Of a stretch of 64,000 nucleotides of DNA, positions 24,501 to 27,500 are shown one piece after another. This DNA is from Harriotta raleighana (lineage: Eukaryota): assembly GCA_050575255.1 (NCBI GenBank), contig JBNZDD010013726.1, positions 7,325,156 to 7,389,155 of the forward strand, in the 5' to 3' direction. How positions within the stretch are numbered: the first letter of the stretch is position 1; every line of letters begins with the position of its first letter. Under the pieces are notes generated by a model that was not told the origin of the DNA, made no database searches, and was given only the letters and a program-made list of their open reading frames with translations. The translations under genes and the position numbers were made by a program.

Positions 24501-27500
24501 AATCTGGATGAGTAATTTCCTTGTTAGCACATAAAGTTAAAGGAGCATGGAACACATGTTTGTTTTCGTTCCCAGCCTAATTATGCTTTGTACTGTTTTG
24601 CATGGTTGGGTCCAAGGCCACATCACAAGATGACATATACATCAGCTTTAAACAAATACAAAAAGTCATGACCCATTTGTTTTGATTTTTCCACTAAGTT
24701 CCGTACTAGGAGGAATGCCACCACAGAGACCAAAAGGCATGACCAGGAATACAAATCCTCTTAGAATTCTCTTTTTTTTCCTGAATAACTCTAGTCGATT
24801 TACTTTCCAAAGTAATGGCTCATCATCGCTAAGTATTTACCCAGAAGCACTAAAAACGTGGACTGAGTCCTTATAAGGTCTTAAAAGTAAATCTCTTTAC
24901 CATATTAGTTCACAACTATCTTTCTCTTTCCATCTCTTTTCTCCCCTCCCCCCCACCCCCATTTGAGGGACAAGGAAGGAGAGACTTCAACACAGCCATG
25001 CTTGATTTTTTGCCTCGGGGACCTTAACCACTTTTCCCTTTCGGTTGTATTTATGGAACAGCCTGCTGTGAAATGGTAAAGTTCATGGTTCATCTGAACT
25101 TTTGAACTGCTAGCTACATTTGTCGCAGCACAACAGACTAAATCAACTTAGCACAGAGATTTGTCGACAGAATCTTGCGCATGGGCCCTTGTCTGGGTCA
25201 TTTGGCAAGGGAAAAGTTTTTCTTATTTACTTAGTATAAGCCATCAGTTTAATAACTAGCAGGGATTGGAGATAAGTGAAAGGAGCACCTTGGAAAAGCT
25301 GATATTGTTGATTTGTCAGTTCACTGAACTCTGTTTGACCCCCTTATTGGAGGCTTCCCCAGGACAAGTCATAGCAACATTGAGATAGTCGAAGCTTCTT
25401 ATCCGATTTCACATGCTGTAGGGCAGGGAGTTCACTGGAACAAGCCGTGATGTGTTTACTGCACTTCTTAACTCAATATAACCATTTGTAAATACTTAGT
25501 TATTGATCTGCTCAACAATAGAATGGTCACATAGAATGGGTTCAGTTTCTAAAATGTTAAAAAAAAAGTGTACTTAATACTGTAGGCCCATAAATAAAGT
25601 ACTGTAACCTTTAGCAATTGAAACCACTGAATGCTGAATATTTTTCTTGGCAATGTATCTTATTAAATTATTGCAGCTCTATTGTATTCAGGCAGCCAAC
25701 GGCTTTCACCCTTTTCTGTCTACAATCTCTCCATTTGTTTTTCTTCGCTTTTGCGGAATTACTCAAGACTACAGTTATTTTATAAGCTGTACTCAGCTGG
25801 AGCTAAGGCGTATGGATCTTTTACCCCTCTCTCTCTAGCTGAAACTGTCCTGCTCTGTCCTCGAATTGTCTGAGTTGCTCCCATAGTCATACAATCTGAA
25901 TTTGGGTTGGGTCATTGCTGAAATTTTCGCAGCATGAAGAGGGGTAGTGCATGTTGCCTGGATTCCTGCACAAATTATTGAAGGTTTCTCTTCCTCTGTT
26001 TCCTTTCAATCTCCTCTTCCCTCCTCCACCCAACCCAATTAACTCCTGATTTGAAGCTGTGATTCTATCAGACTGCCATTGTCTAGGATCATGTCCAAGT
26101 TGCCCTTCATTTATGAGCGTAGCCTATGAATGTTGATGAGCTTCTCATCCAAGGGAGCACAGCAACTGCATCTCATAGATTTTCCTGGCATCTAAGCATT
26201 TTCTGGCAGGAATTACTGGTGTGTGATTGGATGTGGAGATACTGGCTATTTTCCTTCTCCATGGCCGTAGTCCACAAGTCTTGAGTCCAATAATAATAAT
26301 ACTGCCACTATTGTCTCTCTGAGATCCAATTTAAGACTAAACCTGTCTTTCTTTCCTTCCCGTATGTGTATAAGTCAATACATGACAACTAACCATTAAA
26401 GCCAAAGAAAAGCAGGTTCCAGATTGCTGGAAGAGTGATTGTATTGTATTTCTTTGTCTTTAATCCATCTGGCTATTTTTTTTGTTCCCCATGATGCATT
26501 TGTTGGCTATAAACGTTTACCGGGTCTAATTATCTGGAAATCGTAAGAAGGATGTAGCATGTTATAAAGCCATAGTGAAGCACCTGGTTGTGGAGAATGC
26601 AAGGTCAACCATGTGCTGAAGGGAAGCTGAGGCTAAGCACATTCTGTGTACCAGGCCACTGTTACAAGACTCTTTGTAGCAGGCTTGCTGTCTACCTAGG
26701 ACAAAGATAAGGTGATATCATCTCAGTATCACCTCATTAGTTTCCTCTGCTTTTAAAACTGCAGATAACAGGCAGTGTGTTTTCATGCAATTGGAGCCAC
26801 TTTGTGTTTGGCACACATAGGGTCGCTCTACTACTGAAGTAACTTAGTACAAGTGATCAAAGATACTTATTTAATACTGTTGCTTGGTCCTTATATTAAT
26901 CCAATTAATGACCATTGGGAAACCATTCAAAATTAAGTATATCTTTAGCAAAAGTTTTTTTTAACCGAATTCTAATTTAGCAATTTGCTTAATTGAAATC
27001 ATGTGTAGTGGAGTACATCCTATGAAACAAGTTATTCAACACTTCAGCTCACAAAAGCATATCTGTTTACAGTTAGGGCCACAATCAACAAAATGTTGAA
27101 TAAGGAATTCAATAAAACCTCATGTCATTCTAGAAGTTCAGATAACAGCAATAATGTGGCCATTGTGCAAGTATATTCTGCTTGATTTAATTGCTGTCGT
27201 TTTAGAATTGAGTATTTATCTATTGGTTTAGATTAGGCTCAGTAGCTTTCACTCTTTAGTGTCCGCTGCTTTCATTAAACTCATCACAAAATGCATTAGA
27301 GGTTTTCTGAATTTCATTAGCAGTTACTTGGTAATGGAGCTGTTGATTCTGTAGTTTAAAAAAAACTTAGTCTTTTGCTCCTTTGATTTCTTGTTTGGTA
27401 AAGAGGCATTTGTGTAAGTGAGCTAAATAGACCAGGCTGGGCAAAGATTTAAATTATTTTCTTCAGCCAACCACCATTAGTGTGTTTATCGCGAGTGGCA

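Follow-up and report, generated by a model that had tools for sequence, protein, structure and literature searches.

The window, a 64-kb stretch of the chimaera Harriotta raleighana genome, carries the 3′ part of MYOF on its plus strand and CYP26A1, tail to tail with it, on its minus strand; CYP26C1 and EXOC6 are located past CYP26A1, outside the window. The MYOF exons match Callorhinchus milii myoferlin at 58 to 97% identity per aligned stretch, and the best named hit of a query MYOF exon was also from C. milii (92%). The last CYP26A1 exon shows 95% identity to C. milii CYP26A1, a gene that is present in current databases although PMC5247814 did not find it in C. milii. R1, the proximal DR5 of CYP26A1, is identical in H. 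raleighana and zebrafish and has the same reverse orientation (PMC5247814 Table 1, excerpt); it served as an internal positive control. The gene features needed below are as follows.

21584..33850, plus strand: MYOF host intron, 12,267 bp, GT...AG
51696..55631, minus strand: CYP26A1 coding region, tail to tail with MYOF, ATG at 55631
55923..55939, plus strand: R1, proximal DR5 of CYP26A1, 292 bp upstream of the ATG

EXOC6-CYP26C1-CYP26A1-MYOF is one of two linkage blocks that we identified in the H. raleighana genome, the other being EXOC6B-CYP26B1-DYSF (on C13521). Both synteny groups, the Myof-Cyp26A1 linkage included, extend to lamprey (PMC10879103, excerpt). A CYP26-like last-exon match also occurs at G000:C13570:354258-354460; it runs over two frames with a TGA in its first part, and is possibly a pseudogene or a chondrichthyan CYP26B duplicate. 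Upstream of CYP26A1, short near-identical tandem duplications (56635-56790 and 56030-56170) adjoin N bases and poly-G/poly-C runs and may be assembly artefacts.

The host intron lies between an exon ending in IYIKG and an exon beginning with WMAGLEDQK. Exon mapping places the half-site cluster described below within this intron, in agreement with the first-pass annotation, which had assigned it to a MYOF intron. Eleven introns were mapped in the window: nine span 0.5 to 2.9 kb, and the two MYOF introns that bear RAREs exceed all of these, at 14.9 and 12.3 kb; the DYSF counterparts of these two are <1.2 kb and ∼0.8 kb long and lack strict pairs. A copy of the cluster was sought in the paralogous DYSF intron and rejected: that intron is only ∼0.8 kb. 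Detected repeats make up under a tenth of the host intron. They include high-copy SINE-like repeats with tRNA-like heads at 22528-22880 and 29683-30016, and the only two Rfam hits in the intron are tRNA-like heads within interspersed repeats.

Nine perfect RGKTCA half-sites fall within 25080-25434, eight of them inside 25080-25341. This is the densest 400 bp of the window (the runner-up has six half-sites), and it is laid out as follows.

25050..25056, plus strand: TTTATGG word
25080..25108: module A, a DR1 (25080-25092, plus strand) facing a DR2 (25095-25108, minus strand); four perfect half-sites in 29 bp
25087..25100: IR2 formed by the inner half-sites of module A
25195..25200, plus strand: isolated perfect half-site, GGGTCA
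25314..25318, plus strand: TGTCA core overlapping the first half-site of module B
25318..25341: module B, a DR5 (25325-25341, minus strand) plus an IR1 (25318-25330)
25420..25434, plus strand: one-mismatch DR3 containing the perfect half-site at 25429

Together these half-sites, every one perfect, form DR1, IR2, DR2, IR1, and DR5 spacings, including RGKTCA direct repeats with the 1-, 2-, and 5-bp spacing of RAREs. All motifs listed in the first-pass annotation (DR1, DR2, IR1, DR5, the half-site at 25429, and TTTATGG) were found where it had placed them; its count of seven perfect half-sites in about 260 bp needs raising to eight, the GGGTCA at 25195 having been overlooked. Its description of the cluster as the strongest distal candidate in the window holds up in terms of density: the cluster contains five spaced pairs, compared to two at most in any other 400 bp of the window. 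Modules A and B are separated by 210 bp, and both are quasi-palindromic. In module B, the half-site at 25325-25330 is both one arm of the IR1 and the 3′ half-site of the DR5; because this half-site is shared, the IR1 and the DR5 would not be bindable simultaneously. The 1-bp-spaced inverted repeat at 25318-25330 has FXR-element geometry, with AGTTCA as both halves. Across the cluster, AGTTCA accounts for six of the nine half-sites and AGGTCA for none (p about 0.04 and 0.06, respectively).

The cluster motifs are far beyond chance. No 400-bp stretch reached nine half-sites (maximum, 8) or five spaced pairs (maximum, 3) in any of 4,005 fifth-order Markov simulations of 64 kb each, and none of 80 genomic control stretches (10 kb each, taken at fixed positions on 30 large contigs) had even two spaced pairs in 400 bp, their half-site maximum being 6. 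The four-site pattern of module A has one match in the 1.10-Gb genome and none in the control; the IR1+DR5 triple of module B, taken alone, is not rare (five genome-wide matches versus two in the control). Since both modules are palindromic, their half-sites may not be independent, and a local inversion could double them; the rarity is thus possibly overstated, and perfect 6-1-6 palindromes are indeed ∼2-fold commoner in control DNA than independence predicts. We dropped the half-site count as a statistic in favor of spaced pairs because simple repeats score high without forming pairs: among 40 stretches flanking both CYP26 loci, simple repeats reached 11 to 17 half-sites per 400 bp with no spaced pairs (L002, L008, and L016), and three spaced pairs occurred at two other places (L007 and L020).

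Several other origins and inputs were considered. An interspersed-repeat origin was rejected, since the cluster has a single genome match (in a search ignoring very common words) and lies outside BLAST-detected repeat segments; so were a tandem-repeat origin (no TRF array at the cluster) and a known RNA family (no Rfam match near the module). The cluster thus exceeds chance and occupies single-copy, nonrepeat DNA near an RA target, as expected of a RARE. No look-alike was found among the other scanned windows. TTTATGG, which we take to be Cdx/posterior Hox-type, had been listed with the module in the first-pass annotation. It is a weak element: its exact form is present 12 times across the window, for an expectation of 0.075 per 400 bp (0.40 per 470 bp for a degenerate version), and it is not clearly beyond chance. 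Scanning with consensus words for TCF, Pbx-Hox, GATA, Fox, Tbx, and other partners revealed no clear excess around the cluster, and a CTCF-like word was absent from the window and present seven times in the flanks, a weak and uninformative result.

The cluster had been treated as an isolated module; it is better described as one node of a RARE array that covers two enlarged introns of MYOF as well as the region upstream of CYP26A1. The other members of the array are listed here.

11155..11237, plus strand: IR8 plus perfect DR5 (11221-11237), in the ∼14.9-kb MYOF intron
13155..13208: perfect DR2 (13159-13172) plus inverted half-site at 13199
27908..27924, minus strand: second perfect DR5 of the host intron
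57368..57384, plus strand: perfect DR5 in an R2-like position, ∼1.7 kb upstream of the CYP26A1 ATG
61779..61795, minus strand: perfect DR5 between CYP26A1 and CYP26C1

Most genomic DR5 matches are attributable to chance (2,722 perfect DR5s genome-wide versus 2,576 in the control, or 0.16 per 64 kb). The window holds seven (0.16 expected; P = 4e-10), six of which are noncoding; the seventh, at 39711-39727, was excluded as probably coincidental, because it lies in a MYOF exon and consists of codons for DEPNMNP. The 3′ part of MYOF accounts for four DR5s, three of them noncoding (11221, 25325, and 27908; 0.10 expected), and three lie around or upstream of CYP26A1 (0.04 expected). Farther away, we found one in 64 kb of the MYOF 5′ body and one in 157 kb on the CYP26C1/EXOC6 side. 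Both DR2s and the DR1 accompany the three intronic DR5s in the MYOF 3′ introns. All three of these DR5s end in AGTTCA, as does R1, compared to 782 of 2,722 genome-wide. The window has three copies of a 10-mer in which TGTCA, presumably a TALE/Meis/TGIF-type core, overlaps AGTTCA, compared to 0.40 expected; each copy is at a RARE module (both ends of 13155-13208, and 25314-25323). In controls, TGTCA overlaps 5 of 498 AGTTCA sites. We regard this overlap as an after-the-fact lead for possible Meis or TGIF input. Elsewhere in the genome, a perfect DR5 with a RARE-like spacer is joined to an IR1 at L142:5035-5058; the adjoining ORF looks to us like a CNKSR-type PH domain, presumably not that of a known RA target.

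We consider it probable (about 0.65) that 25080-25434 works as a distal RAR/RXR enhancer; from an intron of MYOF, a bystander, it would provide feedback on CYP26A1. CYP26A1 is targeted directly by RA and carries several RAREs, some of them distal (PMC7151129 and PMC5247814, excerpts); RAR/RXR induces it via proximal RAREs in a negative-feedback loop, and further conserved RAREs lie >10 kb away (PMC7151129 and PMC8950952, excerpts). The same two sources report that RAR/RXR binds DR1, DR2, and DR5. At the H. raleighana locus, RXR/RAR dimers would occupy the DR2 and DR5 of the cluster, and the extra inverted half-sites would either raise occupancy and avidity or let RXR-type or COUP-type dimers compete. 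The module, situated 30 kb from the CYP26A1 start on the 3′ side of the gene, would loop over this distance of ∼30 kb to the R1-bearing promoter. As retinoic acid rises, the cluster would boost CYP26A1 transcription; by degrading retinoic acid, the induced enzyme would then complete the known negative-feedback loop, and MYOF would be no more than the bystander host. We infer CYP26A1 as the target from proximity and prior knowledge. In mouse F9 cells treated with RA, Cyp26a1 expression increased by log2 5.6 (∼50-fold) by 6 h, and Myof was flat at 6 to 24 h and increased only at 48 h (supplement rows); this early rise of Cyp26a1 and late rise of Myof fits CYP26A1 as the direct target.

Alternative readings differ in the receptors or the gene involved. 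FXR elements favor AGGTCA-type halves, and the DR1s of PPAR and HNF4 have an A spacer and a CAAAG core. The first-pass annotation saw an enhancer integrating RA with other receptors; of this, an RA-response enhancer is the best reading, and the proposed FXR, HNF4, PPAR, COUP-TF, and Cdx inputs derive from geometry alone. In its full form, such an integrator would bind FXR/RXR at the IR1 and COUP-TF, HNF4, or PPAR at the DR1; these receptors would modulate or override RAR, coupling bile-salt or lipid signals to RA breakdown. The geometry of the IR1 and DR1 is perfect and a half-site is common to the IR1 and DR5; HNF4A cooperates with RAR on CYP26A1 (PMC8950952, excerpt), and CYP26B1, too, has an IR1+DR5 downstream of it, with one mismatch. 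We nevertheless think this unlikely, because AGGTCA is absent from the nine half-sites, the cluster DR1 has neither the A spacer nor the CAAAG core, and the IR1+DR5 triple is near chance genome-wide; by these half-site preferences, the predominance of AGTTCA leans toward RAR over FXR, PPAR, and HNF4. Moreover, RAR/RXR-bound regions are commonly composite, with several RAREs and extra half-sites (PMC4446430, excerpt), such that half-sites beside RAREs are usual, and a literature search combining these motif terms gave nothing. Spacer length in any case predicts the binding receptor poorly (PMC6555819, excerpt). A genuine RAR/RXR enhancer could instead act mainly on MYOF or CYP26C1, or on the whole domain equally. 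The cluster is located within MYOF, mouse Myof does increase with RA in F9 cells, though not until 48 h, and in the chick retina Myof and Cyp26c1 are enriched together in the Fgf8 spot (PMC12776276, excerpt). However, CYP26A1, at 30 kb, is closer than either the first mapped MYOF exon (∼85 kb) or CYP26C1 (at least 47 kb); Myof failed to rise at 6 to 24 h, in contrast to the ∼50-fold increase of Cyp26a1 by 6 h; and CYP26C1 is reported to be RA-down-regulated (PMC5247814, excerpt) or both up- and down-regulated (PMC7151129, excerpt). A main target other than CYP26A1 thus seems rather improbable.

The remaining alternatives concern how the motifs arose. Template switching could have duplicated one or two chance pairs of half-sites locally, in inverted form, and so left a nonfunctional or decayed cluster, as might be suspected from the quasi-palindromic form of both modules and the ∼2-fold excess of 6-1-6 palindromes over independence in control DNA. 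Yet there are two modules, with 210 bp between them; although 11 of the 12 half-site bases match between the arms of module A, the spacers differ in both length and letters; and the surrounding region is a DR5 hotspot next to a classic RA target whose R1 is intact, all of which makes this origin quite unlikely in our estimation. Least plausible by far is an RNA hairpin in the intron, similar to a mirtron or pre-miRNA, in which the two arms look like facing direct repeats. The 25060-25130 segment does fold at −22.5 kcal/mol (z = −2.97), and 0 of 200 shuffles were equally stable; against this, fold stability is a by-product of the palindrome, several internal loops interrupt the stem, Rfam gave no match near the module, and a hairpin leaves module B and the remaining DR5s unexplained.

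Published data temper the proposal of a distal CYP26A1 enhancer. Good DR2/DR5 matches that are not bound number at least 150,000 in mouse (PMC3091300, excerpt). No Myof 3′-end peak appears among the 9,956 rows listed from the mouse F9 RAR/RXR table (PMC4446430 supplement 6), a weak result because the position of the orthologous intron was guessed; the lookup covered 17 one-kb prefixes (chr19, 37.978 to 37.996 Mb). The PMC4446430 table does contain a late-bound F9 peak 0.75 kb past Cyp26a1, which appears to be the "downstream site" of Cyp26a1 in that paper and distinct from the cluster. We found no MYOF row in 12 of the 26 supplementary files of PMC7190832 and no hit in four supplementary files of PMC7259794; searches of the open-licence literature turned up no account of a RARE within an intron of MYOF. 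An orthologue of the cluster may already be among the published conserved DR5s >10 kb from CYP26A1.

In its proposed working, the cluster likely resembles known CYP26A1 RAREs; to judge from its motifs, it is probably a familiar kind of feedback enhancer, at a site for which our literature searches gave none. With R1 to R4 and the distal conserved DR5s (PMC7151129 and PMC5247814, excerpts), it shares the gene, consensus half-sites, and a 3′ AGTTCA; it differs from R1 to R4 in lying 30 kb off, 3′ of the gene and inside MYOF, and in mixing DR1, DR2, DR5, IR1, and IR2. Composite HREs at RAR/RXR ChIP-seq regions likewise combine several RAREs with extra half-sites, whereas the cluster is composed entirely of perfect half-sites, and each of its modules has inverted symmetry (PMC4446430, excerpt). 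Genomic regulatory blocks (PMC3514665, excerpt) are like the MYOF locus in their conserved microsynteny and long introns in an unrelated neighbor, and the locus shows both ancient target-bystander linkage and long bystander introns; unlike in those blocks, the presumed target here is an enzyme gene, and the main text of PMC3514665 names neither Cyp26 nor ferlin. Module B has the same IR1 geometry as an FXR response element, but its halves are AGTTCA rather than AGGTCA, and one of them is the 3′ site of a DR5.

The paralogous block offers a partial parallel. The 96-kb CYP26B1-DYSF gap contains four perfect DR5s (0.24 expected), one of them within a GGTCA repeat; perfect DR5s downstream of CYP26B1 at L007:9715-9914 and L008:5696-5712 are candidate direct RAREs. 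The control of CYP26B1 by RA has been described as indirect or unvalidated. On the EXOC6B side, a late EXOC6B exon has one DR2, one DR5, and one relaxed DR5 within 6 kb; the 112 kb as a whole shows no enrichment (one DR5, 0.28 expected). The gap also holds a one-mismatch IR1+DR5 (G000:C13521:970239-970277; L011:239-277), 66 kb downstream of CYP26B1, which has 29 of 39 bases in common with module B plus its flank; 800 kb of controls contained no such triple, their best match being 26 of 39. By architecture, the expected count of such triples is 0.008 in the gap and 0.05 in both blocks. Its 5′ flank agrees with that of module B at 10 of 14 positions, compared to 2, 4, 4, and 7 for the other four perfect triples. 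The CYP26B1-side triple was detected after the fact (blastn E = 0.19, one of seven queries), is intergenic rather than in the paralogous intron, and runs in the opposite direction relative to CYP26, although the segment that carries it is exon-free and flanked by two assembly gaps; we treat its possible homology to module B as a lead. A bolder and doubtful extension is that the MYOF 3′ introns contain the ancestral long-range RA sensor of the CYP26 cluster, which has kept ferlin tail to tail with CYP26 since before the lamprey split; the DR5+inverted-half-site module, kept in both whole-genome-duplication copies, would then be a >500-million-year-old competitive switch, and for CYP26B1 a direct RARE.

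CYP26A1 feedback sets retinoic acid gradients, and its regulation has mostly been explained by promoter-proximal RAREs. The compact chimaera locus places candidate distal elements within 45 kb and provides a short ranked list of them. If the MYOF-intron module is not conserved, the cluster is an ordinary lineage-specific RARE cluster. If it is conserved, it would point to where noncoding variants in the human CYP26A1-MYOF interval might act; that interval contains a Meniere disease signal whose causal gene is unresolved (PMC13393102, excerpt). A conserved module would also explain the ancient linkage of ferlin and CYP26 genes.
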